DNA of 61,153 nucleotides, the filler included. It is 5 parts of 5 records of this genome, joined end to end, with 100 filler letters (N's around TTAATTAATTAA, not from the genome) between each part and the next. Parts side by side here need not be neighbours in the genome. Positions count along the whole stretch, not along the records: positions 21,542 to 30,276 come from SRR31156797_10414; 4 more parts are not named here. One strand, given 5' to 3'. Every line of letters begins with the position of its first letter. Position 1 is the first letter of the stretch. The translations under genes and the position numbers were made by a program. Below are positions 8,329-30,376 of the stretch, in pieces. Under the pieces are notes generated by a model. The model was not told where the DNA came from and made no database searches. It worked only from the letters and a program-made list of their open reading frames with translations.

Positions 8329-8344
8329 CAACCTAGCATTTATA

Positions 8345-8985: not shown

Positions 8986-9008
8986 TTTAAACTAAAAGTT
9001 TTTTCTTT

Positions 9009-10287: not shown

Positions 10288-10295
10288 ATTATTTG

Positions 10296-10328
10296 AAACA
10301 GGCTAATGAACTCCATTAGCCTGTTTTT
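10296..10328 (+). terminator. intrinsic terminator
   Basis: AAACAGGCTAATG-aactc-CATTAGCCTGTTTTT. Confidence 0.85.
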
Positions 10329-10484
10329 ATGTTACAGAGAAAAATTTCATATCTAAAAGTTTCGACTTAAATAATCTAAATATGATATAATTAAAGTTAG
10401 AGTTGAATGAAAAAAGATTGGTTATGATTTTTTATGATCGCTTTATTCTTTTTGACTAACAAAAATCCGTGAGAGGGGAAAGTT

Positions 10485-11519: not shown

Positions 11520-11530
11520 ATAACCGCATA

Positions 11531-11727
11531 AGATTGGAAATGACTGAAAATGATCGATCTGTCGAATAAAATGTTTCGAAAGTGATTGTTTTGGAAAGAA
11601 ACGGTATTTTTTAATAAAAAAACTAGGGCTAAAACACCAGTAAAATGGTCGATTTTGATTGAAAAAGAAAAAAGTGATGTTTTTTTGGTCAAAAATGGTT
11701 GATTTTGACTGAAAAAAGTTGTATAAT
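11531..11727 (+). promoter_or_regulatory. fru operon promoter with 10-bp phased DeoR/FruR-type repeats
   Basis: TTGATT(11699)-17bp-TATAAT(11722); TGAYTG/TGGTYG units at 11541, 11551, 11646, 11656, 11686, 11696, 11706. Confidence 0.7.
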
Positions 11728-11746
11728 AAAGTTGAGGTGGAGAAAG

Positions 11747-12487: not shown

Positions 12488-13398
12488 TTTATACACTGAC
12501 ACTAAATCCTTCTCTTGATTATGTTGTAAAAGTTGAGGAGTTTATAGAAGGGAAGCTTAATTTAACAAAAGAGGAATATAAGCTTGCTGGAGGAAAAGGG
12601 ATTAATGTAAGTCAAGTGCTTAAAAATTTAGGGCATGAATCAAAGGCATTAGGTTATATAGGTGGCTTTACAGGGAAGTTTATAGAGGACTCTCTGAAAG
12701 AAAAAGAGATTCAAACTGATTTTATTCAGGTTGAAGGAGATACTAGAATTAATATTAAAATGAAAAATGGTAAACATGAAACAGAAGTTAATGGTAATTC
12801 ACCTCAGATTAGCAAGGAACATCAATTAGAGCTGTTTGAGAGATTACAACATTTGAATGAGAATGATACTTTAGTTTTGGCAGGAAGTATCCCCAAAACA
12901 TTAGCACAGGATATCTATATTGAGATAATTAAAAATACTCATGATGGCGTTAAAGTCGTTGTAGATACAAGAAACGAAATATTGAAATCTATTTCAAAAT
13001 TAAAACCTTTTCTGGTTAAACCAAATCATCATGAGTTGGAAGAGATATTTGGAGTAGAGCTTAATGGAATAGATGAAATAATAGAGTATGGAAAAAAATT
13101 AAAAGAGTTAGGGCCTGAAAATGTAGTGGTTTCGATGGCTGGCGACGGAGCAATTTTAATTAATGAAAAAGGTGTGTATGTGTCAAATGTACCAAAAGGG
13201 ACTGTGAAAAATTCAGTTGGAGCTGGCGATTCATTGGTAGCAGGTTTTGTTGGAGCGATAGAGGATAATAAAGATGTAGTTGAAGCTTTTATGCAAGGGA
13301 TCGCGTCGGGAAGTGCAACAGCATTTTCAGAAGGACTTTGTACGAAAGAGTTCGTGGAGAGTTTGTTAGAAGAGATAGAAATAAAAGAAGTAAAATAG
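12484..13398 (+). CDS. fruK: 1-phosphofructokinase (PfkB family)
   Basis: MIYTLTLNPSLDY, GGKGINVS, KPNHHEL, NSVGAGDS. Confidence 0.93.
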   Translation: MIYTLTLNPSLDYVVKVEEFIEGKLNLTKEEYKLAGGKGINVSQVLKNLGHESKALGYIGGFTGKFIEDSLKEKEIQTDFIQVEGDTRINIKMKNGKHETEVNGNSPQISKEHQLELFERLQHLNENDTLVLAGSIPKTLAQDIYIEIIKNTHDGVKVVVDTRNEILKSISKLKPFLVKPNHHELEEIFGVELNGIDEIIEYGKKLKELGPENVVVSMAGDGAILINEKGVYVSNVPKGTVKNSVGAGDSLVAGFVGAIEDNKDVVEAFMQGIASGSATAFSEGLCTKEFVESLLEEIEIKEVK

Positions 13399-13554
13399 AA
13401 TACGGAAATTTCAGATGGCAATAAGGAAGTGCATAATAATTTAAATTAAATCATTTTAGTTAAATAATAATGCTTTTAAGTTGCCTAATCTTTTAGGTGT
13501 ATAGTTTGATAATTAAATTATTTGATATTAAAATTAAGAAGAGGTGATAGTTAA

Positions 13555-15441: not shown

Positions 15442-15491
15442 TTTAAATAAAAACAAAATAAATAACAAGTTTGCCAAGTCTTGTTAGATTT

Positions 15492-15519
15492 AAAAGCGGA
15501 GAGAAATCTCCGCTTTTTT
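15492..15519 (+). terminator. intrinsic terminator after fruA
   Basis: AAAAGCGGAGA-gaaa-TCTCCGCTTTTTT. Confidence 0.85.
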
Positions 15520-15598
15520 AAATTGCTATAATTAATAAAAACAAGTATAATTAAGTGGTGTGAGTAAATAGAATTAAATAAAAAATAAGGGTGAAGAA

Positions 15599-15892
15599 AT
15601 GAATAATATAAGTTTAAAAGAGCTTCAAGAGTATATTAAAAATAAAGACTATAAACCTGAGCTTAAACATGCTTATTTTCTGAAATTAATCGAAGAGACA
15701 GGTGAGTTGTCTGAAGTTATTAGAAAAGATAAACGAATGGGAAAAAGTAAAAATATAAAAGGAACGATAGAGGAAGAACTCTATGATGTACTTTATTATA
15801 CATTGGCGCTTGCAAATGTATATGATGTTGATCTAACGGAAGCATTTGAATTAAAAGAGCAAATAAATAAAGAAAAATATTCAGATAAATAG
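15599..15892 (+). CDS. MazG-like nucleotide pyrophosphohydrolase
   Basis: KLIEETGELSEVIRK...EEELYDVLYY..ALAN. Confidence 0.88.
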   Translation: MNNISLKELQEYIKNKDYKPELKHAYFLKLIEETGELSEVIRKDKRMGKSKNIKGTIEEELYDVLYYTLALANVYDVDLTEAFELKEQINKEKYSDK

Positions 15893-15897
15893 GAGTT

Positions 15898-16518
15898 ATG
15901 ATGATAGAATTTAAGAATATAAATTTAAAATTTAGTGATAAAATAATTTTTGAGAATTTTAATTTAAAAATAGAAAAAAACGAAAAAGCAATATTTAATT
16001 CTCCGTCAGGAAGAGGAAAATCCTTGCTTTTAAAAATGTTATTAGGATTTATTAAACCAGACAGCGGAGAAATAAATATTGACGGAAAAAAACTGGATAA
16101 ACATAGTATAAAAGAATTTAGAAAAAGAATTGCGTATGTAAGTCAGGGAGTTGAATTGAGAAAGATACCGGTAAAACAATTTTTTGATGAAATATTTGAA
16201 CTCAAAAATAATAGACATCGTTCAATTGAAACTAATGAAATTGAATCGATTTTAACTGAATTGAACTTAGAAAGAGGAATACTTCATGAAAATATAAAAG
16301 CAATTTCCGGAGGAGAGAGACAGAGAGTTGCAATAACTGCAATGTTACTTCTTAATAAAGAGATACTTATTTTAGATGAAGTTACTTCTGCACTTGAAAA
16401 AGATTTAAAGAAAAAAGTTGTTAATTATATTTTGAGTTTAGATAAAACAGTACTTGCTATCTCACATGATGAAGAATGGACAAGTAACGAGCAAAAAGTA
16501 AAGGTTGTGAGTTGGTAA
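15898..16518 (+). CDS. ABC ATP-binding protein (FetA/YbbL-like)
   Basis: SPSGRGKS, ISGGERQR, ILDEVTSAL, ISHD; next to a FetB-like permease. Confidence 0.85.
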   Translation: MMIEFKNINLKFSDKIIFENFNLKIEKNEKAIFNSPSGRGKSLLLKMLLGFIKPDSGEINIDGKKLDKHSIKEFRKRIAYVSQGVELRKIPVKQFFDEIFELKNNRHRSIETNEIESILTELNLERGILHENIKAISGGERQRVAITAMLLLNKEILILDEVTSALEKDLKKKVVNYILSLDKTVLAISHDEEWTSNEQKVKVVSW

Positions 16519-16519
16519 A

Positions 16520-17305
16520 ATGACAGTTGATATTTCAATATTTTCACTTTTAATGTTTCTTTTAATGCTTATACCGGTTATACTATTTGATAAATATTAT
16601 AAATTTGGTTTTACAAATAACTTGTTTATTTCTGTAGCCAGAATGTTTATTCAACTTTTTGCTGTTGGACTTTATCTTCAATATATTTTTAAGTTAAATA
16701 ATGCTTTGGTAAATCTTCTCTATATACTTATTATGATTATGATTGCCTCGACAGCGGTAATTAATTCAAATAAACTTGTGCTAAAAAAGTTTATTGTTCC
16801 AATTTTTTTCTCAATATTGCTTCCACAGTTTTTAGTATTAATGTTCTTTAATTTCTTTGTTGTAAGGCTTGATAACTTGTTTGAAGCAAAATATATGATA
16901 ACCGTTGGCGGGATGTTATTAGGGAATTGCTTAAGTGGAAATATAATAAGTTTAAATACTTTTTACCATGGCTTAAAAGATGATGAGGCCACATATTTAT
17001 ATACAATAGCTTTAGGAGCAACTAAAAAAGAAGCTCTGAAAACCTACTTGATAAAAGCTGTGAATGCTTCTACTATTCCATCGATAGCAGGAATGGCAAC
17101 AATTGGACTTGTTTCACTTCCCGGAATGATGACAGGGCAAATATTAGGAGGTTCACTTCCTATTACAGCTATAAAATATCAAATAGCCATTATGATCGCT
17201 ATTTTTCTTGCAAAATTTTATAGTGTATTACTTTCAATTTATTTTACCAGTATAACTGCATTTGATGATTACGATGTACTAAAAAAAGATCTGTTTAAAA
17301 AATAA
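16520..17305 (+). CDS. fetB: ABC permease, FetB/YbbM (UPF0014) family
   Basis: RMFIQL, GMLLGN, GLVSLPGMMTGQILGGSLPITAIKYQIAIM. Confidence 0.88.
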   Translation: MTVDISIFSLLMFLLMLIPVILFDKYYKFGFTNNLFISVARMFIQLFAVGLYLQYIFKLNNALVNLLYILIMIMIASTAVINSNKLVLKKFIVPIFFSILLPQFLVLMFFNFFVVRLDNLFEAKYMITVGGMLLGNCLSGNIISLNTFYHGLKDDEATYLYTIALGATKKEALKTYLIKAVNASTIPSIAGMATIGLVSLPGMMTGQILGGSLPITAIKYQIAIMIAIFLAKFYSVLLSIYFTSITAFDDYDVLKKDLFKK

Positions 17306-17320
17306 AAATATTAATATAAG

Positions 17321-17350
17321 AAAATACCGCAAAATTAATTGCGGTATTTT
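17321..17350. terminator. bidirectional terminator between convergent genes
   Basis: AAAATACCGCAA-aattaa-TTGCGGTATTTT. Confidence 0.75.
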
Positions 17351-17444
17351 CATTTCCAAATTTGTGTTCACTCAAATTGGAAAATTATTTTAAAAGACTA
17401 AAAGCGTTATTTATTAGTTCACGGGATATAAAAATTAGAGTTAA

Positions 17445-18356
17445 TTATTTAACTTTAAATCCGATCTTAACTTCCATCTCGTTACCTGTTCTTGTAGTTG
17501 ATGGATCAGAATCTTTTGAATCACTATAAATATAATTTACAGCTTCGTATGAAACAGCTGCATGCCAAGAGAAGTTATCGTTTACAGTTTTGTTATATTT
17601 AACTACTGGTTCGATATGGGCATCAACTGAAACAGCTTCAGTATCTGGAGTATAGTACGCTTCTACGAAGTTTTCAACTGCAAATGTAACACCTTCAGAA
17701 AGTGGTAATGAATAAGTTAAAGTTGCATCTGTTCCAGCTTGATAATCATATTCATCCTCTCCGCTATCATAGTAGTTGAAGTTATATACAGATAAATCTA
17801 AGCTTAAGTTATCAGTTAAAGAAGTACTTGCATAGAAGTTTGCTTCAACTCCACTGATGTCTTTCATATCGCCATCGATTGCGTCTCCACCAGCTTGTGC
17901 CCATAATTCAGCGGTTAAGCTAACATCTTTTCCAGCAACTTCTACACTTTTACTGAAATTAGGTGCGAAAATATATTGAACTGTTTCGCTTGATCTTTCT
18001 GCTGAATCTACATCCCAACTTGCATCATATCTTAATAAGTAGTAGTTAGTTAGATCCCATCCTGCAAAACCTTCTGCTGATTGAGAGAAACCAAATTGAG
18101 TATCCCATCCTTCAGTTTCAGAACCACTTGATGTTGTAAAATCTTTATCTATATCAAATAAGAATTTGAAAGAATCGTTAATTTTATATGAACCTTTTGC
18201 AACTGTCCATTCAGTTTTTTCAGTTCCACCATCATAATCGTTAAGTACTACTTCGTTAGTTAAAGAACCTAATTCTCCAGCAAATACACTTGTTCCTACT
18301 ATTGATAAACCAGCTATTAATACAGCTAGGTTTTTGTTAAAATATCTTTTCATCAT
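17445..18356 (-). CDS. outer-membrane beta-barrel/porin-like protein (OmpG/KdgM-like)
   Basis: Signal peptide ending VFA, alternating amphipathic strands, acidic loops, C-terminal IGFKVK. Confidence 0.65.
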   Translation of the reverse strand: MMKRYFNKNLAVLIAGLSIVGTSVFAGELGSLTNEVVLNDYDGGTEKTEWTVAKGSYKINDSFKFLFDIDKDFTTSSGSETEGWDTQFGFSQSAEGFAGWDLTNYYLLRYDASWDVDSAERSSETVQYIFAPNFSKSVEVAGKDVSLTAELWAQAGGDAIDGDMKDISGVEANFYASTSLTDNLSLDLSVYNFNYYDSGEDEYDYQAGTDATLTYSLPLSEGVTFAVENFVEAYYTPDTEAVSVDAHIEPVVKYNKTVNDNFSWHAAVSYEAVNYIYSDSKDSDPSTTRTGNEMEVKIGFKVK

Positions 18357-19080
18357 AAATCTCCTTTTTTTCTCATCTATATTTTTTTAAATTAACTCAA
18401 AATCGATTTTGAAAGTCGTTACTCATGACTGACAAGAGAAATTGTAGTTTTATAATCTTAAAATTTCCTTAGAAAATTCGAAAATGGTACTATTGGAGCA
18501 GGACTAGAGTTGATAAAAAGTTCGAATTTAAAACATAAAATCAGAAGATTGTATATTCAGAATATGATAATGTCTGGAAAGATAAAAAATATCATGAGGC
18601 TAAAAGTTATATAAAAAAATCTTAATAAAATAAAAGTCGCTGATATAAAATGACATAAAGAACAAAAACGTATTCATAAAACATATAAGAAAGATATAAT
18701 ATTTAAATGTTTTGATTCTGTAAAAGTAATAACATTATTAAATTCTCATATGATTGTTTACAGAGATGAAGTATGTAAAATGATAGATAAATAAAAAACA
18801 TATGTTTTGAAACGGGAAAATAAAATTAAAGTTGAGTCGAAAAATATTAAAAAGTAATTAAAATTAGAAAAAACTTAAAATTGGATGTTTTACACTTTTC
18901 AAGTGTACTAATAAAGAAAATGTGCTAAAAAGAGAGTTTTTTTAATAAAAATACATTTGTTTATATCTGTAATAGACAAGGAAGAAGGAAGTATCGGTGG
19001 TATAATACAAATAGGTCGGTTTAGTTGCGCTTGCGAACATATATTTTAATTTGATTATATTATAAGAGGAGGATTGAATT

Positions 19081-19827
19081 ATGAAAAAATCACTATTATT
19101 TTTAATTTTTTTGTTTATTGTGACAACATCATTTTCAAATGTAAATAATTTAATTATGCGAACTGAAGAATATCCGCCATACAATTATACTGAAAGTGAA
19201 GAAATAAAAGGAATATTTCCAGATATTCTTGAATATTTATTAAAAGAAGTAGGTTCTGATCTAGGAAAAGAAAATATGAAAGTTTTACCCTGGGCAAGAG
19301 CGTATAACTTAACTCTACAAAATAAAAATTCAATGCTTTTTTCCATAACTTATACTGAGCAAAGAAAACCTTTATTTAAATGGGTTGGTCCTATTATTGG
19401 AGCAAGAGTAGTTCTTTTTGCAAAAAAAAATAGAAAAATTAAAATAAAAGATGTTTCTGAACTTGAATACTATAAAATCGGAGTTATAACTGAAGATGTA
19501 GGGGAGCAACTTTTAAAAGATGCCGGAATAGATCCTTTGATACTTGAACATACACCCAAAGCGATGAGTAATGTCATGAAGCTTAAGCATGGAAGAATTG
19601 ATATGTGGGCTTATGGAGAAAATGTAGGTAAATGGTTTCTAAAACAATACTCAGGAGATGTTTCGGATTACGAAGTGGTTTATACTTTGAAAGAAGGACA
19701 TATGTATATAGCTTTTAATACGAACACTCCAGATGAAGTAATTAATAAATTTCAAAAAGCAGTTGAAAAACTAAAAACAGAAGATATACATATCTATAAT
19801 AAGATTATTAATAAATACCTTAATTAA
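19081..19827 (+). CDS. periplasmic substrate-binding protein (family 3-like)
   Basis: Signal peptide, TEEYPPYNY, LPWARAY, TEQRKPLFKWVGPI, GRIDMW. Confidence 0.85.
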   Translation: MKKSLLFLIFLFIVTTSFSNVNNLIMRTEEYPPYNYTESEEIKGIFPDILEYLLKEVGSDLGKENMKVLPWARAYNLTLQNKNSMLFSITYTEQRKPLFKWVGPIIGARVVLFAKKNRKIKIKDVSELEYYKIGVITEDVGEQLLKDAGIDPLILEHTPKAMSNVMKLKHGRIDMWAYGENVGKWFLKQYSGDVSDYEVVYTLKEGHMYIAFNTNTPDEVINKFQKAVEKLKTEDIHIYNKIINKYLN

Positions 19828-19991
19828 AATATTAATTTTGAATAAAAACTAGCAATGAGTTGAGTCCTGAAAACGAGGGCTCAATTTTTATATAACTCAG
19901 AATAGATTAGTAAAATTATATTTATTATTAAAATAAATATAATTTATGACGATAAATAAGTATAAAGGATAAATAAAACTTACAAACTGAA

Positions 19992-21086
19992 ATGGAGGGA
20001 AAGATCGTGAAGAGAATATTGACGCTTTTTATGCTTTTATCTTTAATTGTACTTGGAGCAGAAGAGTTTAAAATAGAAGAAACCTTGAGGAAAAAGAAAC
20101 CGTTTGGAATCATAATAAAAAATCCAAAGGGGATAACTATTAAAGAGTTTAGGTATCAGGAATTTGATGAGGATAAAAATCCAACTAAAATGGATGTAAT
20201 AGTTAGAGGTAATAGAGCAAAAAAAGTTGGAGATATAACTTATGTTTACAATAAAGGTCAAAGACTTTTTTCAGTTGAAAAAGACCTTGAAGGAAAAGTT
20301 GTTGAGATCGCTTATTATTTTGAAAAAGATGGTGACTTAATAGAAGAAGTTAGAGATGGTAGCGGAAATTTTATAAAGTTCTTAAAACATGGCGAAAATA
20401 AACTAACAGATGTAACGAGTGACTTAATAGAAGAGAGATGGATAAATAAGATGGTTATTAATGAAGATCAACTTCTTCAAGTTATAAAACCTCTTGATAG
20501 TTTACAGCTGATTCTTGAAAGAGATCAAAGAATGGTTCTTAGTAATGCTCTAATCAATTTTAGTACAGCTAAAACAACTGTAAAAGATACTTTGATTGCA
20601 CAGTTAATAACAGATGCGGTTAGAGAGTATATTGATAGTGATGTAGTAATATATAATGGAGGTAACCTTGACGGTAAAATCAAGATAGGACCTGTTAGAT
20701 ATGAAAATTTAAAGAATATAATAAAGGATGAAAAACTCTATTTATTTAGAGTGTGGGGAGAAACACTTCAAGAGATATTCCAAAATGCTGCGGAGCTTCC
20801 AACTGCACATAGAGAGTTTCCTAATACGGCAGGTTTGACTTGGGATACTACAATGGATAAGGTTTATCTTGAAATTGCAGAAAATGGTATAGATAAGTTT
20901 AAAAAATATAGTGTGGTAGTTAATCAGTATATTAAAGAAGGAAATGGTATATATTATCCATTTAAAGATTTAAAAGCTTTTGAAGTAAGATATCCGACTT
21001 CGATAATAACGGCAGAATATCTTAGAAATATTGATATAATAGATAAATCCTACTTAGTAGAGGAAAGATATATTTCCAGAAAATAA
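19992..21086 (+). CDS. exported protein with C-terminal 5'-nucleotidase substrate-binding domain
   Basis: Signal peptide; IAQLITDAVR..DVVIYNGG..IKIGPV..YSVVVNQYI resembles 5_nucleotid_C; likely start GTG 20007. Confidence 0.6.
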   Translation: MEGKIVKRILTLFMLLSLIVLGAEEFKIEETLRKKKPFGIIIKNPKGITIKEFRYQEFDEDKNPTKMDVIVRGNRAKKVGDITYVYNKGQRLFSVEKDLEGKVVEIAYYFEKDGDLIEEVRDGSGNFIKFLKHGENKLTDVTSDLIEERWINKMVINEDQLLQVIKPLDSLQLILERDQRMVLSNALINFSTAKTTVKDTLIAQLITDAVREYIDSDVVIYNGGNLDGKIKIGPVRYENLKNIIKDEKLYLFRVWGETLQEIFQNAAELPTAHREFPNTAGLTWDTTMDKVYLEIAENGIDKFKKYSVVVNQYIKEGNGIYYPFKDLKAFEVRYPTSIITAEYLRNIDIIDKSYLVEERYISRK

Positions 21087-21375
21087 AATATTGAAATAAA
21101 AAAATCTGCAATTAATTTTAATTAGTTAATTACAGATTTTTTTTACTCTAGAAAAGTATTAAATTCCTAAATATACTATTGAAAAAACGAGTGTTATATT
21201 ATATTTTAGGAACTTTGAGCCTTTAATCACGATTAAGTTTAATTTTTCGTTCTCTTGAGTTGGGGTGGTTGATTTTCCTTGCTTGAAAAAATATAGTATT
21301 TATGATAGTATTTAGTGTAAAAAAATGGAAATAGATATAATAATATTAATTACAATTAGGAGGCATAAATAGATT

Positions 21376-21441
21376 ATGATAGGAATCGGAATTGTTGGAC
21401 TTCCAAATGTTGGAAAGTCGACACTTTTTAATGCAATAACA
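21376..21441 (+). CDS. ychF: Obg-family ATPase YchF, 5' end (contig edge)
   Basis: MIGIGIVGLPNVGKSTLFNAIT with RBS AGGAGG. Confidence 0.92.
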
Positions 21442-21541
21442 NNNNNNNNNNNNNNNNNNNNNNNNNNNNNNNNNNNNNNNNNNNNTTAATTAATTAANNN
21501 NNNNNNNNNNNNNNNNNNNNNNNNNNNNNNNNNNNNNNNNN
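21442..21541. other. artificial contig spacer
   Basis: N-run + TTAATTAATTAA + N-run. Confidence 0.99.
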
Positions 21542-21843
21542 AAAATTTTAGTTAGGTAGCTTACTATATGCTGCCTTATTATTTTTTTCAACCCTTATTT
21601 TCCAAGGCGGCAGCACGAGCGGTCATTTGGACACCGAAGGTATCTTAACGGGCTATATAGGTTTATATGGTCACACAGATTCCTTTCGAATCCAGGCTAC
21701 AATGCCTGGCAATTCAAGGGGCTGCAGCCCGGGAATTTCCCCAAGGATTGTCTGTATCCGGAAGGATAATGGGGGCCAGAAGGGGCTGTTTCTTTGATTT
21801 TCATACTTTTGGACGATTATCTGTCAAGCATGTTGGCAGACAA

Positions 21844-22905
21844 TCAAAAGTGTTGTCGTTTGAGCAAGTCTTTGCCCGCAAGCTCAACGATCCTGTTTAA
21901 CGTTTCGTGGAAACCCGTACTAATTTGTTTCTTGCCGTCAAAAACAGCATCAAAAACTTTCAGTCCGAACTCATCATCTTTTCCAACGGTTAATCTCACC
22001 GATCCCTTTGCAAAACAGCCGTTTTTCAGGACCACGTCTTCGTCTCCGTCCACGATTCCGATGACCGGAATCCCGAATCTTGACAGGATATCGGCCGCCA
22101 CAACGGTGGTATCATCCCCAACTGTGACCACCCCTTCGGCATGGTTCATCAAATCATAAACATGCATGCCGGCATGGTCCAAAAAAACCATCCCCTGTCC
22201 CTTGGTCTCAATGATCCGGGGGGGACGGTAGGTGCGCCGGATTGAGGGGGTAGAGGCCAGTTTGGCGACTGGCAGGTCAACCCCTCCCAACCGGTCGAGT
22301 TTCTCTATCCCATGCTCTTTTACAACGACGCCACCGATCTTACAGATATGACCGTTCTTGCAGGTAATCACTATATCTTCACCCGTTGCCCGGCCGACCA
22401 TAATGCCGTCCACAAGAACAAAATCCCCAGCCTCGGCAGTGGTCATGCGGCGGTGAATCTTTCCGCCCTCTTTCCAAACCGAGGGACTGATCTGTATTTT
22501 TTCTTTTTGGGACAGGCCCATTTGAGCCAGGGTATTGATGAGGGGGCCATGACAGCCTTTGATCCATTCCACCCAGAAAGGACCGCTGCATTCCACCTGT
22601 ATCACAGGAATATCTACCCCGGACCGCTGGACCACCACTCCCCCGAAAACCAGCCCCGCCTCAACGGATTTGCCAAAGTTGACGATCAGCACCGTTTCCG
22701 ACCGGAAGGAGAGTTCCTTAAGGCAGGCCCCGGGCATTTTATCCCAGAATTCAATGGTATTCAGGCCACTGTCCAATACCGCGGTTCGTCCCATGGTGCC
22801 GGCCAGGACACAGAGAACAGAATCAATGGATTCAACCGCGGTGATGACTTTTTGAGCCCATCCTGTATCAAATACTTCCGGGCCGTGGAAGAGCAGGCCG
22901 ATCAC
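21844..22905 (-). CDS. DUF2117-like protein (family known mainly from methanogenic archaea)
   Basis: IGLLFHGPEVFDTGWA, GTMGRTAVLDSGL, VKEHGIEKL, FLDHA, VTVGDDTT..DILSRFGIPVIGIVDGDED recognised from memory; GTG start at 22905 overlaps the upstream TGA. Confidence 0.75.
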   Translation of the reverse strand: MIGLLFHGPEVFDTGWAQKVITAVESIDSVLCVLAGTMGRTAVLDSGLNTIEFWDKMPGACLKELSFRSETVLIVNFGKSVEAGLVFGGVVVQRSGVDIPVIQVECSGPFWVEWIKGCHGPLINTLAQMGLSQKEKIQISPSVWKEGGKIHRRMTTAEAGDFVLVDGIMVGRATGEDIVITCKNGHICKIGGVVVKEHGIEKLDRLGGVDLPVAKLASTPSIRRTYRPPRIIETKGQGMVFLDHAGMHVYDLMNHAEGVVTVGDDTTVVAADILSRFGIPVIGIVDGDEDVVLKNGCFAKGSVRLTVGKDDEFGLKVFDAVFDGKKQISTGFHETLNRIVELAGKDLLKRQHF

Positions 22906-23468
22906 TGGTTCACCCCGAACAGCTTCTTGTAAAGGCTGATATGCTTCCGGCTCCATACCGCATCATGATCATGGCCCTGTTCTTCCCAGTGGCCTATGTT
23001 TTTCTCCCAATGCTCCACCGGAGCCCTGTAATCGCTCAGGTTTCTTCCGCAAAGAGCCATCAGTTCCGCTGCGTGTTCAAAGGCGTCTGCCGCCTGGAAA
23101 TGGGCACCTCTGTCCGCGCAAAAGACCCCAAGCCGTTCACAGACCAAGATCCCGGCATCCCAGTCTTTTTCCTTTTCAAATATCTGGGCCAGCCGGTATG
23201 CCGTGATAACGGCCAAATCCGTGTTTCCTGACCGCATGGCGGCGGAAAAACCGTTTTCCAAAGCCGCTGCTGCCTGCCCGGGTTCCTCCCGGGCCTCATA
23301 CAGACCTGCGGCATTCATGTATCCGTGAACGCCTAAGGTGTAACTGCCCTTCCGGGTTTTCAGGTCTGCGTATTCCTTCCATTTTTCCGGATCTAAGGTC
23401 TTTCTGGCCTCATGTTCCAGTTTCCGGCCAAGGTAATAGGTGTCGTTCCCGACAAGATCCCAGTCCAT
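22902..23468 (-). CDS. alpha-helical repeat (TPR/SNAP-like) hypothetical protein
   Basis: Repeated AAGLYE / AADAFEHAAE helices, C-terminal GHDHD; RBS AAGGAGA. Confidence 0.7.
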   Translation of the reverse strand: MDWDLVGNDTYYLGRKLEHEARKTLDPEKWKEYADLKTRKGSYTLGVHGYMNAAGLYEAREEPGQAAAALENGFSAAMRSGNTDLAVITAYRLAQIFEKEKDWDAGILVCERLGVFCADRGAHFQAADAFEHAAELMALCGRNLSDYRAPVEHWEKNIGHWEEQGHDHDAVWSRKHISLYKKLFGVNQ

Positions 23469-23560
23469 ATCCGTTCTCCTTTTCTGAAAGACTCCCGGCC
23501 AGGTGCCGGAATGTCATTTTTTTTTGTATGCAGATTCCGGATCAGTGTCCGGCCCTGCCC

Positions 23561-24517
23561 CTATACCCAACATGTAAACAATAGCCAGATCAATCCGGTC
23601 ATGATCACCATCCTCAATCCGGTGGAGACGATGAGAACCCGTAATCCCATGCCCGGACCGAAAATTCCGAAATAGTAAGGAACCAGGTAGCGCAGATTGA
23701 TCCCGCTGGCCAGCAGATTCCCCATCAGCAGGGAGAGGACCACCTCCCGGCCGGTAATCTGTCCTGCGAAAAGCAGGTTGCCGGCCACCGTGAATGCGCC
23801 CACATTGCTTCCCAGCCGCGTCACCACGATGGAAAGGGCACTTGGGGATATTGGTATAAACGTTGTCAGACCTGCCAGCCCAATGCGTAAACAATCAAAT
23901 GTCCCCGCGTGAATAAACAAAAACATCACCATTGTAACCGGGACAGTGGTCTTGATAACGCCCAGGATAATCTTCCTGCTCTTTTTCACACTCTCAATAA
24001 AAAGTGCCCATGACGGAGAAATCACGCCCTTGTCTGTGGGGAATGCTCCGGATGCGGCACAGTTTTTAGGGTCAAGGAAAATCCTGCCCAATAAAAGGGC
24101 CGTAACGGTTTTGATGAGCCCCACAAGCACGAGGAACCCATAGTAGGCAAGGGCGGATGAGCCGATGAGCGGGAGTGCTATGGGAAGCATGGTCCGCCAA
24201 TGCATCACAATCCCGGGAAAGGTATTGACAATGGCTGAAATCAGAACTTCCCTCTGGTCAATGCGGCCTGCTTTCTGGTGGTGGACCAGCATGGCATTGC
24301 CCGCGGCAGGGGACAAGAAAGCGGTTAAAAAGCTGGCACCGCATTCCGGTTTCAGATTCCCCAGAAAGGTCAGCGGACGGGTCACCCAGGAGATCCTGTT
24401 CACCCAGCCCAGGCTGACAATGAACTCTGCCGCCACAACCCCGGCTGTGAAAACAGGAATCATGGCCCCAAGAAATTTCAGCGTCGAAATCATCGCCGAT
24501 CCGAGAATGACGGACAT
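23561..24517 (-). CDS. nucleoside-recognition (Gate) domain membrane protein
   Basis: Hydrophobic two-lobed protein; SFLTAFLSPAAGNAML, REVLIS / REVVLSLL repeated halves. Confidence 0.75.
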   Translation of the reverse strand: MSVILGSAMISTLKFLGAMIPVFTAGVVAAEFIVSLGWVNRISWVTRPLTFLGNLKPECGASFLTAFLSPAAGNAMLVHHQKAGRIDQREVLISAIVNTFPGIVMHWRTMLPIALPLIGSSALAYYGFLVLVGLIKTVTALLLGRIFLDPKNCAASGAFPTDKGVISPSWALFIESVKKSRKIILGVIKTTVPVTMVMFLFIHAGTFDCLRIGLAGLTTFIPISPSALSIVVTRLGSNVGAFTVAGNLLFAGQITGREVVLSLLMGNLLASGINLRYLVPYYFGIFGPGMGLRVLIVSTGLRMVIMTGLIWLLFTCWV

Positions 24518-24519
24518 GA

Positions 24520-25287
24520 TTACCCCGCTGTCCCGGTGGGCAGGATATAGGGGTATCCGTTATTTTCACGGATGGTTGCCTTCACACCGTAGACAGAGCG
24601 TATGTTATCGGCTTTCATGACCTGCCGGGGAGTACCACAGCAACAGATCTGTCCCTCCTTAAGCATGATCACCCTGTGGGAAAACCGGGATGCCAGGTTT
24701 AAATCATGCATGGCCATCATGGCGGCAACACGGTTTTCTTTCACCAGGCTGGAAAGCATTTCCAGGACCTCCAGCTGATGTTTTAAATCAAGGTTGCTGG
24801 TGGGTTCGTCCAGAAGCAGATACTCCGTATCCTGGGCAACGGCCCTGGCCAGCAGAACCTTTTGCTTCTGCCCGCCGCTCAATTGGTCGAAATTCCGCAG
24901 GGCAATATCCGTTAAATCCATGGTGTCTATGACATGGGCGGTTTTCTCAAAATCGGTTTTTGCAGGTTTCCAGGTAATATAGGGCCTCCGGCCCATCAGC
25001 ACCGCGTCAAATACCGTGATGGGGAATTTGGACGGGATACTCTGGGGCACGTACCCCACACATCTTGCATGGTCTTTGCGGTCCATGGCCGATGCATCCC
25101 GGCCGTTTATCATAATGGATCCCCGGTCCGGTCTGTGGATGCCCGTGATGCATTTGAGCAGGGATGTCTTTCCGGTTCCGTTGGGCCCCACAATACTCAG
25201 GATTTCTCCCTGGTGAAGTTCCAGTGTGATATCTTTGAGGATGGATCTTTTTTTGTATCCGAAGAACAAGCCGTCAACACTCAGCAT
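24520..25287 (-). CDS. iron-complex/cobalamin ABC ATP-binding protein (FecE/BtuD-like)
   Basis: GPNGTGKT, LSGGQKQK, LLDEPTSNLD, MHDLNLA. Confidence 0.92.
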   Translation of the reverse strand: MLSVDGLFFGYKKRSILKDITLELHQGEILSIVGPNGTGKTSLLKCITGIHRPDRGSIMINGRDASAMDRKDHARCVGYVPQSIPSKFPITVFDAVLMGRRPYITWKPAKTDFEKTAHVIDTMDLTDIALRNFDQLSGGQKQKVLLARAVAQDTEYLLLDEPTSNLDLKHQLEVLEMLSSLVKENRVAAMMAMHDLNLASRFSHRVIMLKEGQICCCGTPRQVMKADNIRSVYGVKATIRENNGYPYILPTGTAG

Positions 25288-26321
25288 TACCAGTACACTC
25301 TCTTTTTTTTCATTAACAGGTAAAAGAAAAAAGGCACCCCGATAAAAGAAGTGACTATGCCTAAAGGGATGACCTGGGGTGCCCAGCAGGTTCTTCCCAG
25401 GGTGTCTGCGGCCAGAACGAGAATGGCACCGATCAGGGCGGAGGAGGGAAGATGGAACCAGTGATCGTTTCCCACGATCATCCGGGCAATGTGCGGCGCC
25501 ACAAGGCCGATAAACCCGATTACCCCGGTAAAACAGATACTTGCCGCCGTAACCATGGAGGCAAAAATCACCCCGCCGGTTCTGATTCCGGTAACGTTCA
25601 CTCCCAGGGCCTTTGCCGACTCATCCCCGGCCGCCAGAAGATTAAAATCAAAGGACCATTTTAAGAGAAGGGGAACCGGAAGAAGGATCATCACGGCGGC
25701 CAGGATGATTTCCTGCCACCCCACCTTGGAGAGGCTCCCGAAAAACCAGAATACGATCTCGTGAACCTGTTCCACCGTTCCCATATACTGCAGAAAAGAG
25801 GAGAGGGAAGAAAAAAGGAACATGATGGCGATTCCCGCCAGTATCATTACCTCCGGCGTGGTGCTTTTAATCCTGGCAATTCCCAGAATAAGAAAAGAGG
25901 CCAGAAGCGAAAAAAAGAATGCACTGCCGGCAACCAGATACCGGCAGTAAAAGGCACCCCCGAAAATGATGGCCGCCACAGCACCGAACCCGGCGCTGGA
26001 GGCAATACCCAGAGTATACGGTGAGGCCAAGGGATTTTTGAGTATGGCCTGGAAGACACTCCCGGACAGGCCGAGACCTGATCCCACCAAAACGGCCATG
26101 ACAATACGCGGTAGCCTGAGCTGCCAGACAATGGCACTGGATAGTCCGGCCCGGGTAAAAACCGCCTTTAAAGAATCTGAAAATCCAACGGAGGAAGCCC
26201 CCAGTGAAAGGGCCGTCAAGGCCATCAACATCAAAACCATGACAAGGAAGATGATAAATAGACCTTTTTTTGTGCTGAGCCTTTTGTGCTTTTCTTGTAT
26301 ATTCTGCATTTCAAATATCAA
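25287..26321 (-). CDS. FecCD/BtuC-family ABC permease
   Basis: LRLPRI, NPLASPYTLGI, GDESAKALGV, GVIGFIGLVAPHIAR. Confidence 0.93.
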   Translation of the reverse strand: MIFEMQNIQEKHKRLSTKKGLFIIFLVMVLMLMALTALSLGASSVGFSDSLKAVFTRAGLSSAIVWQLRLPRIVMAVLVGSGLGLSGSVFQAILKNPLASPYTLGIASSAGFGAVAAIIFGGAFYCRYLVAGSAFFFSLLASFLILGIARIKSTTPEVMILAGIAIMFLFSSLSSFLQYMGTVEQVHEIVFWFFGSLSKVGWQEIILAAVMILLPVPLLLKWSFDFNLLAAGDESAKALGVNVTGIRTGGVIFASMVTAASICFTGVIGFIGLVAPHIARMIVGNDHWFHLPSSALIGAILVLAADTLGRTCWAPQVIPLGIVTSFIGVPFFFYLLMKKKRVYW

Positions 26322-26327
26322 AATTCC

Positions 26328-27374
26328 TTACTTATCCGGGTATATATATACGCCCTGATAGGGAACACCCTGAAATTCCTCAAGGTATTGTCTGTGAAGG
26401 GCTTTCGGGGGAAGCGTTACCGCTGCATCTGGAAAAAACCATTGGACCATGTAATACATCCCTATAACGGCCCTGGGGCCGGTCCAGATATCATTTGCAA
26501 TCACATGGACCCTGCCTTTTTTCACCGCATTGGTATGGGCCCAGGCCGGCCGGGTAATGACACGGTTTCTTATCTTTTCAAGGTTCCTGGCATCGGTCAT
26601 GTTATAACATGACCCGCAGGCACTTCTTGTTGTCACTTTTACAATCACATCAGGATTGCAGGTTAAAATCCACTCCGAGGTGACTTCGGGGTAGGGTATG
26701 GACAATGTAGCGGCAATATTGCTACCGCCGGCCAAAACACACATATCATTCCCCCCGGATCCGGGACCTGCTGTATGGTAATTGGAATCCCCTTCGATAT
26801 ATACCTTTGGGCGAACCCGTCCGGTCAGTATATCCCGCACATGGGTCAAATGGTCACGGTACCATTCGGCGAGTTCGGCGGCCTCTTTTTCTTTTCCCAG
26901 AATCCGACCCAGGAATTTTACCTCTTTTTCAAGGATACCCGGTTTAAAAAAATCAAGACGTATGACCTGGATACCAAAGGGCAGAAGCTTTCTTTCCATA
27001 TCCCGTCCGGGACGCGCTCTATAACAGAGCACGGCATCAGGCTTGAGCTCAACAAGCCGTTCATAATTGACCTCTTTCCAGGTTCCGACCTTGGGCCTGT
27101 CTCTTAATCCGGGCCAAAACCTGGCATTTTTTGTAATATCGGAGTACACCCCGACCACCAGTTGAGAAGCACCCAGGGACCGGATGACTTCCAGGGCGTC
27201 CGAGGTTAAGACCACCAGTTTTTTGACCGGCAGTCTCACCTCACCCTCTACCCCGGCGGCATCTTCCATGGAAACAATTCTTTCTGCCGGAAAAGAGCCG
27301 GCAAAAACGTCCCCGGCAATCGGCCGGCAGAAAAAAAAGACAATCATGGACAGGATGAGAATTCGTTTTTTCAT
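26328..27374 (-). CDS. class III (FecB/BtuF-like) substrate-binding protein
   Basis: Signal peptide, NYERLVELKPD, LAGGSNIA, EWILTCNPDVI, NAVKKGRVH. Confidence 0.9.
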   Translation of the reverse strand: MKKRILILSMIVFFFCRPIAGDVFAGSFPAERIVSMEDAAGVEGEVRLPVKKLVVLTSDALEVIRSLGASQLVVGVYSDITKNARFWPGLRDRPKVGTWKEVNYERLVELKPDAVLCYRARPGRDMERKLLPFGIQVIRLDFFKPGILEKEVKFLGRILGKEKEAAELAEWYRDHLTHVRDILTGRVRPKVYIEGDSNYHTAGPGSGGNDMCVLAGGSNIAATLSIPYPEVTSEWILTCNPDVIVKVTTRSACGSCYNMTDARNLEKIRNRVITRPAWAHTNAVKKGRVHVIANDIWTGPRAVIGMYYMVQWFFPDAAVTLPPKALHRQYLEEFQGVPYQGVYIYPDK

Positions 27375-27392
27375 TAAAGGTCAGTTGTCCGT

Positions 27393-29537
27393 TTAAAATT
27401 CATATGAGACCCCGGCTTCTATATAACGACCGTTAAGTGGATAATACAAATGGGCCGGAGTGCCGTCAGAATTCCTTTTACCGGTTTCATTAAAGATATT
27501 TTCTTTTTCACGATTAAAAAGATTATTGCACAAAAACCATACCTTAAAATTCTTACCGGTATAGGTCAATCTGGCATCTGTGGTGATATAATCCTTCATC
27601 TCATACCGGTTCAGGACATCTATATATTGGCTGCTGTAATAGTTCAGGTCGGTGCTGAACTTCCAATTATCCAAGAAATAAAAATCCAACCCGAAAGTAG
27701 ATGTAAATTCAGGCACATGAGGGACTTTCTGTCCGGAAATATCAACATTCTGCCGGGTATCGCCGGCAGGGGTCTCTCCCCAGACATATGCCCTGAAGGT
27801 TCCGCTGTCCCACTCGGCATCCTGGTATGCGCCCATAAGGCGATACCCCAAAAATGGGCAGATGTGGCCCGAGGCTTCAAGTTCAAGGCCCTGATGCTCA
27901 GACTCTCCGACATTCTGGTATCCCTTCCAGGTGGAGTTATCGTATAGCGACAAAAATTTATCTTTTATTTTCATGTAATATGCCGTAAATGCCAGACTGA
28001 GCCTTGGATTGACGTATTGCTTATAACCCAATTCCAGGGTCTGGTATTCTTCAGGCTTCAAATCCTCGGCCCTGTTATCGTTATCCCCGTATTCCATTGC
28101 GTATTTGTAATACTGCAGTACCGGATACCAGAAGGACTGTGAAAGAGAGGCATAAAGGGTGGCATCCGGGAGGGGATGAAGGGCCGGTGTAATATCCCAG
28201 GAAAAATCCGTATGCCTGTTGGAAACCTGTTTCGGCACCTTGCTTTTAACCTCATAATTTACCTGATCAAGGCGGCCGCTGAAATTAAGTTCCCACTGCT
28301 CGTTGAAGTCCAGTTCATTGCTCAGAAAAACACCGTACCGCTCTCTTTCTGTATCCAAAGATCCTTTGGCAACAGCGGTTTGCTGCGAAGAGGAAAGGGG
28401 TGTCGGAGACCAGGGGTATGCCTTGGTTTGATCATATTTAATATTTTCATAATCCACACCAAGTGCGGGCGTAAATTTAATGCTATCAAATTCAAAGTGC
28501 CAGCCGCCTGAAACTTTTGTCAGATACCGGTCCTGCTCACTGTCTTCCTGGTAGTCATAATAGGAGCTGGTTTTACTATAGGCGGGATTGAGTCTTTTGG
28601 GCAGATATCTGTACACATGGTCTGTTGTATCATAAGAGACCAGTCCGCTGACAAAGGATTGGTCTCCTTTTGTATTAAATTCAAGGCTCATGGCAGTATT
28701 TTCATCCTCATTCTCCCGGTTGTGCACCAGGGTGGAATCTGTTGCCGATGTGGGAAAGATCCTGTCCCGCCGGTGGTTGGTCACCTGCCATTCCGACTTT
28801 CCATAGATGGTATCGTAATCCACCTTCTGCCAGCTCAGATTGACCCCTAGACGGGTGTCCTCTGAAAAGTTATGTCCAACACTCAAACGGGCCGTCCCCC
28901 TTTGCTTGTTGTCGTCCTCATACCCCTCCGTATCAAGAGCGGACCCCCCAAAAGCATAATCCCAGTCACCTGTCCGGCCATTGATATTGGCCGAGGCCTT
29001 GCGGGTATCCCAAGACCCGTAAGATACACTGGTCTTGACGGCCGGAGCTCCCTTTTTCCCCTTTTTGGTGATAATGTTGATGACCCCCCTGGATGCATCC
29101 GGCCCGAATGCGATACTTCCTGAGGATCGAAGTACTTCAATGCGGTCAATATCGCAAACCGAGATGGCATCATATTCTGTATAGCCTGAAATACCGCCAT
29201 TGGCAGGGACCCCGTTTATCAATACCATAACCCCGGCTGACTGGGGGCTGCGATTTCCCCTGAATGTCAAACGATCCCGGCTGTCACTGTCTTTAACCAC
29301 TCCTGGAATATTCTGAACAATGTCGACGATGTTTGTCGCTCCCATTTCCTCGATTTCCTCAGCTGTAATCATAGTGAGGCTTGCGGGTGTTTCCACCAGT
29401 GTTCTATCGGTTCGAGGTGCACTGACGATAATTTCCTGAAGACCAATTGTCTCATCGCCCCCTTTTGTCCATGCTGAATGGGGTAAAACAATTCCTACAA
29501 CCACAACCGCAAGAAGAGCCAGCCTTAACCTTCTCAT
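27393..29537 (-). CDS. TonB-dependent outer-membrane receptor
   Basis: Signal peptide, TonB box EIIVSA, plug IDRIEVLRS..GVINIITKKG, C-terminal GVSYEF; ATG 29537 with RBS AAGGGAGG. Confidence 0.93.
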   Translation of the reverse strand: MRRLRLALLAVVVVGIVLPHSAWTKGGDETIGLQEIIVSAPRTDRTLVETPASLTMITAEEIEEMGATNIVDIVQNIPGVVKDSDSRDRLTFRGNRSPQSAGVMVLINGVPANGGISGYTEYDAISVCDIDRIEVLRSSGSIAFGPDASRGVINIITKKGKKGAPAVKTSVSYGSWDTRKASANINGRTGDWDYAFGGSALDTEGYEDDNKQRGTARLSVGHNFSEDTRLGVNLSWQKVDYDTIYGKSEWQVTNHRRDRIFPTSATDSTLVHNRENEDENTAMSLEFNTKGDQSFVSGLVSYDTTDHVYRYLPKRLNPAYSKTSSYYDYQEDSEQDRYLTKVSGGWHFEFDSIKFTPALGVDYENIKYDQTKAYPWSPTPLSSSQQTAVAKGSLDTERERYGVFLSNELDFNEQWELNFSGRLDQVNYEVKSKVPKQVSNRHTDFSWDITPALHPLPDATLYASLSQSFWYPVLQYYKYAMEYGDNDNRAEDLKPEEYQTLELGYKQYVNPRLSLAFTAYYMKIKDKFLSLYDNSTWKGYQNVGESEHQGLELEASGHICPFLGYRLMGAYQDAEWDSGTFRAYVWGETPAGDTRQNVDISGQKVPHVPEFTSTFGLDFYFLDNWKFSTDLNYYSSQYIDVLNRYEMKDYITTDARLTYTGKNFKVWFLCNNLFNREKENIFNETGKRNSDGTPAHLYYPLNGRYIEAGVSYEF

Positions 29538-29665
29538 TCGACCTCCCTTTTCCAAATTCCGCTGTATACTTAAAATCATTCCGGTACTGACAATTCACAT
29601 TTCAAACCCGCTCAAGAACATTTTTTATGTCGAATGGTTAGAAGAATTGATCTCTATCCTGATCT

Positions 29666-29820
29666 AAAAACAAAAAAAGCCAAGAACGCAGAACCGGACT
29701 CATGTCCAATCGGGCCTTCTTGGCTTAATTGCAAATAACCGTCATGGGCTGACTGGGTGTTTCATCCCAACCCGCCATAACAAATTAAAAAAAGAGTCTG
29801 CTGATTTTACTGCAGATTCT
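29666..29820 (-). promoter_or_regulatory. structured 5' leader with terminator-like hairpins
   Basis: Minus strand: AGAATCTGC..GCAGACTCT+T-run; GC-rich stem 29744-29778; AAGCCAAGAA..TTCTTGGCTT+T-run. Confidence 0.55.
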
Positions 29821-30276
29821 TATAATATTCAAATCAGTTGATCTTATAAAATGTGCAAATTCCTTTTGCACGCTGGATTGTGTTTAAACGCATTCTTGAT
29901 TTTTGTCAACATATAACCCTCGTACACCTTTTGCTTTTTATGTGTTTTCTTCGACTTTTTGTATAGCTCAATATAAATGAATTCTCGCTTAATACCTGCC
30001 TAAGATTTTGAACCTTATAGTCAAAATTATGGGGGATTATCTTGATTGCTACCAAAAACTACAAGAGGAAAAAAATTATTGACCAAGCTAATTTTTGAGA
30101 TTTCTCCGCCCTTTGACTTTATCTGTTTAAGCGTAAATTTTTAATCAGAGATCAACCGCCATATCCCGTGGCAGCCGCTTTCCGTTGAAAAGGAAGGAGT
30201 ATATACTCTATCCCGGGTTTCCATGATACCAATAGAGTGACAGAAACAAGATAAGAATAGGAATTGTTTAATGGGC

Positions 30277-30376
30277 NNNNNNNNNNNNNNNNNNNNNNNN
30301 NNNNNNNNNNNNNNNNNNNNTTAATTAATTAANNNNNNNNNNNNNNNNNNNNNNNNNNNNNNNNNNNNNNNNNNNN
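30277..30376. other. artificial contig spacer
   Basis: N-run + TTAATTAATTAA + N-run. Confidence 0.99.

Follow-up and report, generated by a model that had tools for sequence, protein, structure and literature searches.

The stretch of DNA analyzed here, referred to below as the window, is 61,153 nucleotides long and carries at 21844-29537 seven co-oriented, tightly packed genes on the minus strand. They encode, in operon order, a TonB-dependent outer-membrane receptor, a periplasmic class-III binding protein, a FecCD-family ATP-binding cassette (ABC) permease, an ABC ATPase, a Gate-like integral membrane protein, a helical protein that we call HEL, and a protein of the family DUF2117 (PF09890). 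A sequence-only reading had proposed this series of closely spaced or overlapping genes, and Pfam together with gene calls confirms all seven (Table 1). From the receptor to DUF2117, the intergenic gaps are 18, 6, -1, 2, 92, and -4 nt. The receptor likely starts at the ATG at 29537, which is preceded by GGGAGG and followed by a hydrophobic, signal-peptide-like N-terminus. DUF2117 most likely starts with the GTG at 22905, which gives a protein of 353 amino acids (aa), matching nearly all homologues. This GTG overlaps the stop codon of HEL as GTGA, an arrangement by which the HEL-DUF2117 pair is predicted to be translationally coupled. The Gate-like protein scores 21.8 bits against Pfam Gate (PF07670), under the gathering cut-off of 29.6, while PF07670 is precomputed on 27 of its 38 homologues and its Atlas feature score to Gate clusters is 0.98. 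The window is no single genomic stretch, as five contigs are joined by four N44-TTAATTAATTAA-N44 linkers, and therefore the host organism, a bacterium of the sulfate-reducer type, must be inferred from the operon contig itself. The operon occupies the third contig alone (21542-30276, 8735 bp), so that genes of the window outside it are no true neighbors. This contig ends about 300 nt past DUF2117.

The last gene of the operon matches PF09890 over its full length in a hidden Markov model search (320.3 bits against a cut-off of 25, E 1.5e-95, model positions 2-324 of 325), bearing out the family name given to it from the letters alone, and its Atlas neighbors are exclusively DUF2117 clusters. 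That the family is mainly archaeal also holds. PF09890 is present in 162 of 301 genomes sampled from the methanogen-rich phylum of a Methanoregulaceae metagenome-assembled genome (MAG), versus 1 of 301 in the phylum and 6 of 401 in the order (Desulfobacterales) to which a Desulfobacter carrier belongs. We take COG4029 to be the same family as PF09890. In the part available to us, a 2007 survey counts COG4029 as specific to methanogens (PMC1852104). A search for DUF2117 homologues found 590 at E 1e-3 or better; the best 120 of the 590 all carry PF09890, and those among these 120 that name a source all come from bacteria (Desulfobacter, Desulfosarcina, Desulfonema, Desulfobacula, Acidobacteria, Latescibacterota, Elusimicrobiales, and Brachymonas). 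Desulfonema ishimotonii and Desulfosarcina ovata are among the species named there. Maximum likelihood applied to 46 DUF2117 sequences, with a midpoint root and a narrow archaeal sample, gave a tree in which one branch (support 89/91) has all 27 bacterial sequences to one side, adjoined by a long-branched Thermoprotei sequence. Brachymonas falls within Elusimicrobiota and Latescibacterota beside Desulfobacterales. The window protein lies inside the Desulfobacter group, and its nearest relative is that of locus L001 at 77% identity.

To place the gene in context, a scan of species-representative genomes yielded 33 DUF2117 loci, 27 of them bacterial (five phyla) and 6 archaeal, and neighborhoods were covered for the 27 bacterial and about 20 archaeal loci. 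Neighbor genes were assigned by tblastn and clustering, gene calls in related loci came from a simple open reading frame (ORF) picker, and most of the relatives compared are MAG contigs. In 26 of the 27 bacterial loci, the gene immediately upstream of DUF2117 is HEL, and in the bacterial DUF2117 clade it is the obligate partner. The sole bacterial locus lacking it, L006, offers only 262 nt of upstream DNA, with no HEL remnant. Of these 27 loci, 22 contain a Gate gene and 23 a TonB receptor, so that other bacteria, too, conserve the linkage of DUF2117 to receptor and importer genes previously seen in one operon. All seven genes follow each other in the window order in L001, L002, L004, L007 (an apparently decayed copy), L009, and L063. 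The FecCD importer accompanies HEL-DUF2117 in Desulfobacterales and in Brachymonas, and in the latter HEL-DUF2117 is divergent from a series of receptor, binding protein, permease, ATPase, and Gate genes. Elusimicrobiota have the order nikR, TonB-dependent receptor, Gate, HEL, DUF2117 without an ABC importer. In Acidobacteriota, Gate-HEL-DUF2117 is joined by one or two adjoining receptors, and Gate alone serves as inner-membrane transporter in most. Gate is absent from L010, L011, and L016, and the Latescibacterota locus L008 places HEL-DUF2117 within a set of the energy-coupling factor (ECF) type, consisting of a double ABC ATPase, CbiQ, and an ECF S component. The constant part is thus HEL-DUF2117, usually with Gate, whereas outer receptor and inner-membrane transporter can be exchanged for others. 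The idea that a sulfate reducer had coupled an archaeal-type module to an outer-membrane receptor is therefore half right: the coupling exists, but it is not the invention of this organism, as Desulfobacterales share the cassette and bacteria of at least five phyla have its core. The window receptor is 55-75% identical to the receptors of the Desulfobacterales loci. No conservation was seen among the genes 3' of DUF2117 in those loci.

Several of these loci have features of their own. In the cultured Desulfobacter curvatus DSM 3379 (L007, 4334-8482), the receptor matches only from residue 224 and the ATPase is missing residues 32-141, and this copy of the operon may be decayed. A second DUF2117 copy, nearly identical to that of L007, is the one in L006, on a 5.2-kb scaffold without HEL. 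In a complete Desulfobacter genome (L003, 3624-9476), the operon is interrupted by about 5.9 kb with seven ORFs between Gate and HEL-DUF2117. A small ORF of 91-98 aa without a Pfam match directly follows DUF2117 in the Latescibacterota locus (L008, 7955-8227) and in two Elusimicrobiota loci (L018, 9258-9551; L020, 11065-11340); none is present on the window contig within the roughly 300 nt 3' of DUF2117.

HEL is all-helical, and its family comprises 104 proteins of about 184-215 aa. These come from the same bacteria that carry DUF2117, plus three proteins named Candidatus Methanofastidiosia. Invariant residues are D9, Y11, R15, E18, W30, K37, K40-G-S42, D128, E131-H132, E135, and W172-S173. 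The GHDHD motif to which the sequence-only reading drew attention proves lineage-specific, and a single Asp of it is invariant. On one metagenome contig (L053, 155-1769), HEL and DUF2117 genes overlap and a GAF histidine kinase comes after them. This contig is 90% identical to a Candidatus Methanofastidiosia HEL protein and is probably archaeal. Its DUF2117 is 36% identical to that of the window (E 2e-73) and joins the bacterial clade in a quick tree (Shimodaira-Hasegawa-like approximate likelihood ratio test 91). By these sequence comparisons, the HEL-paired DUF2117 proteins form what appears to be a distinct subfamily, and not a purely bacterial one. The archaeal loci with mainstream DUF2117 have no HEL, Gate, or importer nearby, and their neighbors vary. 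A metallo-beta-lactamase-fold (MBL-fold; Lactamase_B_2) protein of 230-262 aa is near archaeal DUF2117 in 14 of 20 loci (L039-L052, L030, L032, L033); its gene is often divergent, with MarR-like and SAMP2-like genes downstream. A reading of archaeal DUF2117 as part of Nre-linked DNA repair was rejected, Nre being adjacent in only 2 of 20 archaeal loci.

The link to a metal comes from regulation. The small gene adjoining the cluster in L024 encodes NikR (Pfam NikR_C 2.4e-31, plus RHH), and nikR is directly upstream in 8 of the 12 Acidobacteriota and Elusimicrobiota loci (all 6 of Elusimicrobiota, 2 of 6 of Acidobacteriota). The delta-proteobacterial NikR box is given, in the part of the source available, as GTGTTAC-N13/14-GTAACAC, with reversed variants too (PMC545781). 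We scanned for it with half-sites in any orientation and up to 2 mismatches of 14. Such boxes are located at the cluster promoter in 11 of the 12 loci, while L027 requires 3 mismatches, and additional boxes precede nikR and divergent receptors. Shuffled sequence gives about 2.1 sites per 100 kb, so the total count is unremarkable but the placement is striking. In these two phyla, the core therefore appears, from gene order and box placement, to be under NikR control. Because nikR is adjacent and NikR boxes lie at the promoters there, we read the Gate-HEL-DUF2117 core as nickel-linked, with a link that is indirect for the window. [NiFe] hydrogenase large subunits are encoded in all 4 carrier genomes tested. 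An Elusimicrobiota MAG encodes neither CbiM nor NicO. In one Acidobacteriota locus (L015, 5976-6764), a DUF364/DUF4213 gene annotated as 'putative heavy-metal chelation' lies between a FecCD importer and a Gate-HEL-DUF2117 set controlled by a NikR box.

What DUF2117 might do was approached through its residues and its predicted fold. Residues invariant in bacterial and archaeal members (full-length numbering) include R169, K213-x-H215-G-x-E218-K219-x-x-R222, D260-H261, G280-D-D-T-T284, D303-x-D305-x-D307, S319, and D327-D328. The clustered Asp/His motifs noticed earlier, HGPE, DHA, GDDTT, and DGDxD, are thus invariant or nearly so in both domains of life, while the metal-dependent enzyme drawn from them can only be inferred. 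With acidic loops at the ends of parallel strands (DH, GDDTT, DGDxD, DD), accompanied by K-x-H-G-x-E-K-x-x-R, the invariant residues would resemble an enzyme site for a divalent cation, perhaps with a phosphorylated or nucleotide substrate. As judged from its residues, the protein seems unlike a His/Cys-rich storage protein. An AlphaFold model (predicted local distance difference test, pLDDT, 86) has three parts, two alpha/beta domains at the N- and C-terminal ends with a small beta-barrel between them. The N-terminal domain of the model is closest to the CbiG homologue 3eeq_B (Z 10.4, root-mean-square deviation 2.5 over 107 residues; next Z 7.5). The C-terminal two thirds, modeled alone with a pLDDT of 84.8, gave no convincing fold match. 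The best VIA-align Z is 4.9 (FakB/DegV, thiamin pyrophosphokinase, and receiver domains), and the best Foldseek E is 0.05; the weak Foldseek rows, at a probability of at most 0.15, include FNR-like siderophore-interacting proteins. Foldseek of the whole model against the PDB returned only scattered multi-domain matches with TM about 0.2, and solved structures searched by sequence yielded nothing for HEL, Gate, or DUF2117 (best E for DUF2117 0.089). The acidic motifs could also be read as Toprim, HAD, or PIN-like, but these readings were set aside as speculation unconfirmed by any search, and no fold was assigned. A literature search found no functional study of DUF2117; the name was mentioned only in an unrelated context, and PF09890 not at all.

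Expression of the operon in Desulfobacterales seems to follow a different logic. Upstream of the receptor gene (29665-29910, minus strand), a TTGACA-type promoter is followed by a hairpin and two terminator-like hairpins. A TTGACA box with similar spacing is present upstream of the receptor in L001, L002, L004, L063, and L071. In the hairpin, whose loop reads A-N-G-A-A (ANGAA hairpin below), all 7 stem pairs change on both sides among 7 loci, 98% of cells pair, and none of 500 shuffles equals this, although the hairpins were picked by eye, which favors structure. The A, G, A, and A positions of the loop are invariant in the 7 loci. For the bipartite terminator, an alignment of 10 loci with RNAalifold gives 19 pairs, 9 of them with compensatory changes; its outer stem is strongly conserved in sequence (AGCCAnGAAGGC), and the motif is unique within the window. 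The leader is without an Rfam match. A covariance model of the ANGAA hairpin, which is short (21 positions) and yields poor E-values (0.1 to 10), recovers the operon leader in a complete Desulfobacter genome, as well as a second site in a Desulfonema-like genome with the promoter-hairpin-terminator layout before another FecCD-ATPase-binding-protein operon. Its matches in L066, L068, and L072, near transposases or an unknown protein, may be due to chance. We also considered the hairpin as a DNA operator. Pattern searches found 6-7 sites in two carrier genomes versus 3 in a control, and because no regulon emerged and the stems vary while the loop is fixed, the operator reading was dropped. From its sequence, the leader looks like attenuation or antitermination control of FecCD-type importers, and operon expression in Desulfobacterales is probably set by this conserved leader rather than by NikR. 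Because it is shared with a second FecCD importer, the regulatory signal could be general, e.g. iron or a cofactor. Elsewhere in the window, the G+C of the first two contigs (0.30-0.33) differs from that of the other three (0.42-0.49), so the bin may mix organisms, and a GTPase-like gene is truncated at the contig edge at 21441.

Table 1. Genes, leader elements, and contigs of the window, with leader equivalents in related loci
Feature	Position	Strand	Remarks
TonB-dependent outer-membrane receptor, 714 aa	27393..29537	-	Pfam Plug 71.5 bits, 1e-19; TonB_dep_Rec_b-barrel 137.2 bits, 1.9e-39
Periplasmic class-III binding protein (Peripla_BP_2), 348 aa	26328..27374	-	Pfam 3.9e-25
FecCD-family ABC permease, 344 aa	25287..26321	-	Pfam 302 bits, 4.8e-90; about 9 hydrophobic segments
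ABC ATPase, 255 aa	24520..25287	-	Pfam 4.5e-33; start overlaps permease stop
Gate-like integral membrane protein, 318 aa, without G domain	23561..24517	-	About 6 hydrophobic segments
HEL, 188 aa, predicted cytoplasmic, helical (TPR/SNAP-like)	22902..23468	-	Weak sub-threshold SNAP/TPR-like match
DUF2117 (PF09890), 353 aa from GTG start, three predicted domains	21844..22905	-	Pfam
Putative sigma-70-type promoter, TTGACA, 17 nt, TAAACA	29881..29909	-	Read by eye; promoter not listed by consensus scan
Leader hairpin GTGCAAA-AGGAA-TTTGCAC, A-N-G-A-A loop	29853..29871	-	Covariation in 7 loci
First terminator-like hairpin, CTGC..GCAG then T run	29786..29816	-	Equivalent in L001, not in L002 or L004
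Bipartite terminator-like hairpin: 13-bp outer stem AGCCAAGAAGGC.., inner 6-bp hairpin, T run	29672..29727	-	About 130 nt upstream of receptor start
Leader equivalent, L001	3159-3397		
Leader equivalent, L002	3194-3350		
Leader equivalent, L063	5239-5558		
Leader equivalent, L071			
Leader equivalent, L069/L076			
First contig	1-8642		G+C 0.33
Second contig	8743-21441		G+C 0.30
Third contig	21542-30276		G+C 0.49
Fourth contig	30377-55120		G+C 0.45
Fifth contig	55221-61153		G+C 0.42
Linkers N44-TTAATTAATTAA-N44	8643-8742, 21442-21541, 30277-30376, 55121-55220		

Taken together, we tentatively favor, at close to even confidence, a self-contained, high-affinity cassette that takes up a nickel complex through a TonB receptor and an ABC importer and in which HEL-DUF2117 is a cytoplasmic processing or hand-over unit. 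The receptor would carry a scarce metal complex, most likely a nickel chelate, across the outer membrane, and the class-III binding protein with the FecCD/ATPase importer, perhaps together with the Gate-type permease, would carry it across the inner membrane. In the cytoplasm, HEL-DUF2117 might then act on the import by freeing the metal from its ligand or handing it on. Gene content, conservation of the core, and NikR control elsewhere are what we observe; the substrate in the window organism and the action of HEL-DUF2117 are what we infer from them. Nickel had been among the substrates first suggested, and that suggestion stands in part: nikR and NikR boxes flank the core in two other phyla, but the window has neither, and its receptor is not close to theirs. 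A number of points weigh against a nickel cassette. The window contig has no nikR homologue and no NikR box at up to 2 mismatches, and its single 3-mismatch site is not conserved in L001. NikR_C finds no match in any of the 6 DUF2117-bearing Desulfobacterales genomes, and nikR and its box are absent from the Desulfobacterales and Brachymonas loci examined. The window receptor is only 24-32% identical, mostly over the plug, to receptors of other phyla including those of NikR-controlled loci, and its substrate specificity may therefore differ. Two carrier genomes (G001 and G002) have one CbiM/NikM-type gene each. DUF2117 has no His/Cys-rich nickel motif, no solved structure accounts for its C-terminal two thirds, and the genes next to its archaeal members are unrelated ones (for Nre, an MBL-fold protein, and a MarR-like protein). 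In one carrier genome, a leader of the same type also stands before another, unrelated FecCD importer. Finally, the nickel link runs through the orthology of three genes only, and because these orthologues are in other phyla, rival explanations stay open.

Because the importer resembles known systems, we ran NCBIfam equivalog models with curated cut-offs on the receptor, binding protein, permease, and ATPase. None of the four reaches a Btu, siderophore, or haem equivalog cut-off, all scores being far below, and a grouping with ordinary BtuB/BtuF or siderophore systems, which would have spoken against the sequence-only reading, is not seen in these scores. The pattern of best matches still lends something to the salvage of a corrinoid or other tetrapyrrole, in which a cobamide, cobinamide, or related macrocycle would enter by the receptor and a BtuFCD-like importer and be remodeled by DUF2117 in the cytoplasm. 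BtuC models are the best NCBIfam matches of the permease (235.1 of 461; 220.7 of 334), and the binding protein matches BtuF at E 7e-18 and solved BtuF chains at about 1e-12, its best solved relative being 4mo9 (1.3e-15). The resemblance of the N-terminal domain of DUF2117 to a CbiG homologue points the same way. Yet BtuF reaches only 64.7 bits of 234, the BtuB models give the receptor 100.9 of 599.7 and 75.9 of 836, and BtuD gives the ATPase 140.5 of 281. No Rfam family, cobalamin and NiCo riboswitches included, is found on the operon contig at E up to 1, nor any Rfam element at gathering score in 8 related loci, cobalamin riboswitch included. Profile comparison of DUF2117 with CbiG (hhalign) gives a probability of 0.2, i.e. 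no sequence similarity, and in two phyla the core is controlled by NikR and not by B12. The corrinoid or F430-like substrate suggested at the outset thus finds no support beyond a fold resemblance of one domain, and we consider it unlikely. Ordinary iron acquisition, in which a ferric siderophore or haem is taken up and HEL-DUF2117 releases the iron or recycles the ligand, would fit the best subfamily model of the receptor, the TonB siderophore receptor TIGR01783, and the best NCBIfam match of the ATPase, a haem ABC ATPase. It would also fit the leader before the second FecCD importer and Fur-box-like AT-rich repeats upstream in L009, L011, and L016, a by-eye reading only. However, every curated cut-off is missed here too (143.2 versus 223.5 for the siderophore receptor; 119.2 versus 316.85 for TIGR01785), and NikR control of the core in other phyla speaks against iron; we hold iron to be decidedly unlikely. 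The receptor matches solved structures over plug domains only.

It is also conceivable that the complex contains another divalent metal, such as cobalt or zinc, or is bound by a broad-spectrum metallophore, the core being re-used for different metals across lineages. Receptors and inner-membrane transporters do differ by lineage, with only Gate-HEL-DUF2117 in common, and the CbiQ/ECF context in L008 and the DUF364/DUF4213 genes beside the L015 cluster could be read this way. No positive evidence favors a particular other metal, though, and NikR is the sole regulator identified, which makes this quite unlikely in our view. HEL-DUF2117 might, instead, be unrelated to the imported substrate, a housekeeping or nucleic-acid enzyme riding in operons. 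In Methanoregulaceae loci, DUF2117 overlaps an Nre gene near a DNA ligase; in one Thermoprotei locus it is near RNase HII; and a nuclease- or Toprim-like site could be read into the acidic motifs at the strand ends, a reading that no search confirmed. Against this, adjacency to Nre is limited to the two archaeal loci mentioned, no Toprim or nuclease is among the top 50 structure matches, and the pair lies inside transporter clusters in 26 of 27 bacterial loci with three transporter types, where chance hitch-hiking is hard to credit. We find such an enzyme very unlikely.

A wider proposal can be made, which we regard as somewhat unlikely as a whole. HEL-DUF2117 would be a new cytoplasmic pair of nickel-processing enzymes common to methanogens, in which DUF2117 is near-universal and the demand for nickel extreme, and to bacteria that captured the pair into TonB-dependent operons, and a leader RNA of ANGAA hairpin and bipartite terminator would govern the Desulfobacterales operon and other FecCD importers. 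DUF2117 is an orphan family that more than half of the genomes sampled from a methanogen-rich archaeal phylum carry, and its occurrence with a helical partner in NikR-controlled uptake clusters turns a role in handling nickel into a testable hypothesis. How nickel is released from its ligand after TonB-dependent uptake is an open question, and HEL-DUF2117 would, if this is true, supply the missing step. The available part of one review raises the question of whether nickelophores exist at all (PMC3856676). A second lead, independent of this one, is the conserved leader, which may be a new RNA regulating metal-chelate importers.

Among known systems, the closest in architecture is that of Helicobacter mustelae, where, according to the part of the review available, the TonB receptor NikH works with the FecCD-type importer FecDE/CeuE for nickel (PMC3856676). 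Both combine a TonB receptor, a FecCD-type importer, and a class-III binding protein, and a nickel-ligand complex is presumed there. The H. mustelae system, in the same part of the source, is without Gate, HEL, and DUF2117, the likeness being one of architecture, and the window operon differs from it in having no NikR control. The same text describes FrpB4 and FecA3 of Helicobacter pylori as NikR-repressed TonB-dependent nickel receptors (PMC3856676). The Acidobacteriota and Elusimicrobiota clusters, with nikR and GTGTTAC-N13-GTAACAC boxes over the promoter, resemble these receptors and the delta-proteobacterial NikR regulon as far as the available text describes them, whereas the window and its Desulfobacterales relatives have neither nikR nor box. 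Published delta-proteobacterial NikR regulons, in the portion of the source at hand, hold importers of the NikMNQO/NikABCDE type and not Gate, HEL, or DUF2117 (PMC545781). BtuB-BtuFCD has the same three-layer architecture, and Btu models are among the best matches of permease and binding protein, but the scores fall well under cut-off, a cobalamin riboswitch is absent, and the window operon contains three genes more. The Gate-like protein of 318 aa is similar to the membrane part of FeoB with its Gate domains, but has no G or GDI domain and a Pfam score under the gathering cut-off; one may speculate that other proteins of the operon take the role of the cytoplasmic part of FeoB. DUF2117 of methanogens has the same full-length domain and invariant residues as that of the window, but with 32-36% identity, and most archaeal members are without a HEL partner or transporter context. 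The bacterial clade and one Methanofastidiosia-like member form, in comparison with other archaeal DUF2117, a separate HEL-paired subfamily. Set beside all of these, the operon would be a further form of TonB/ABC metal uptake.

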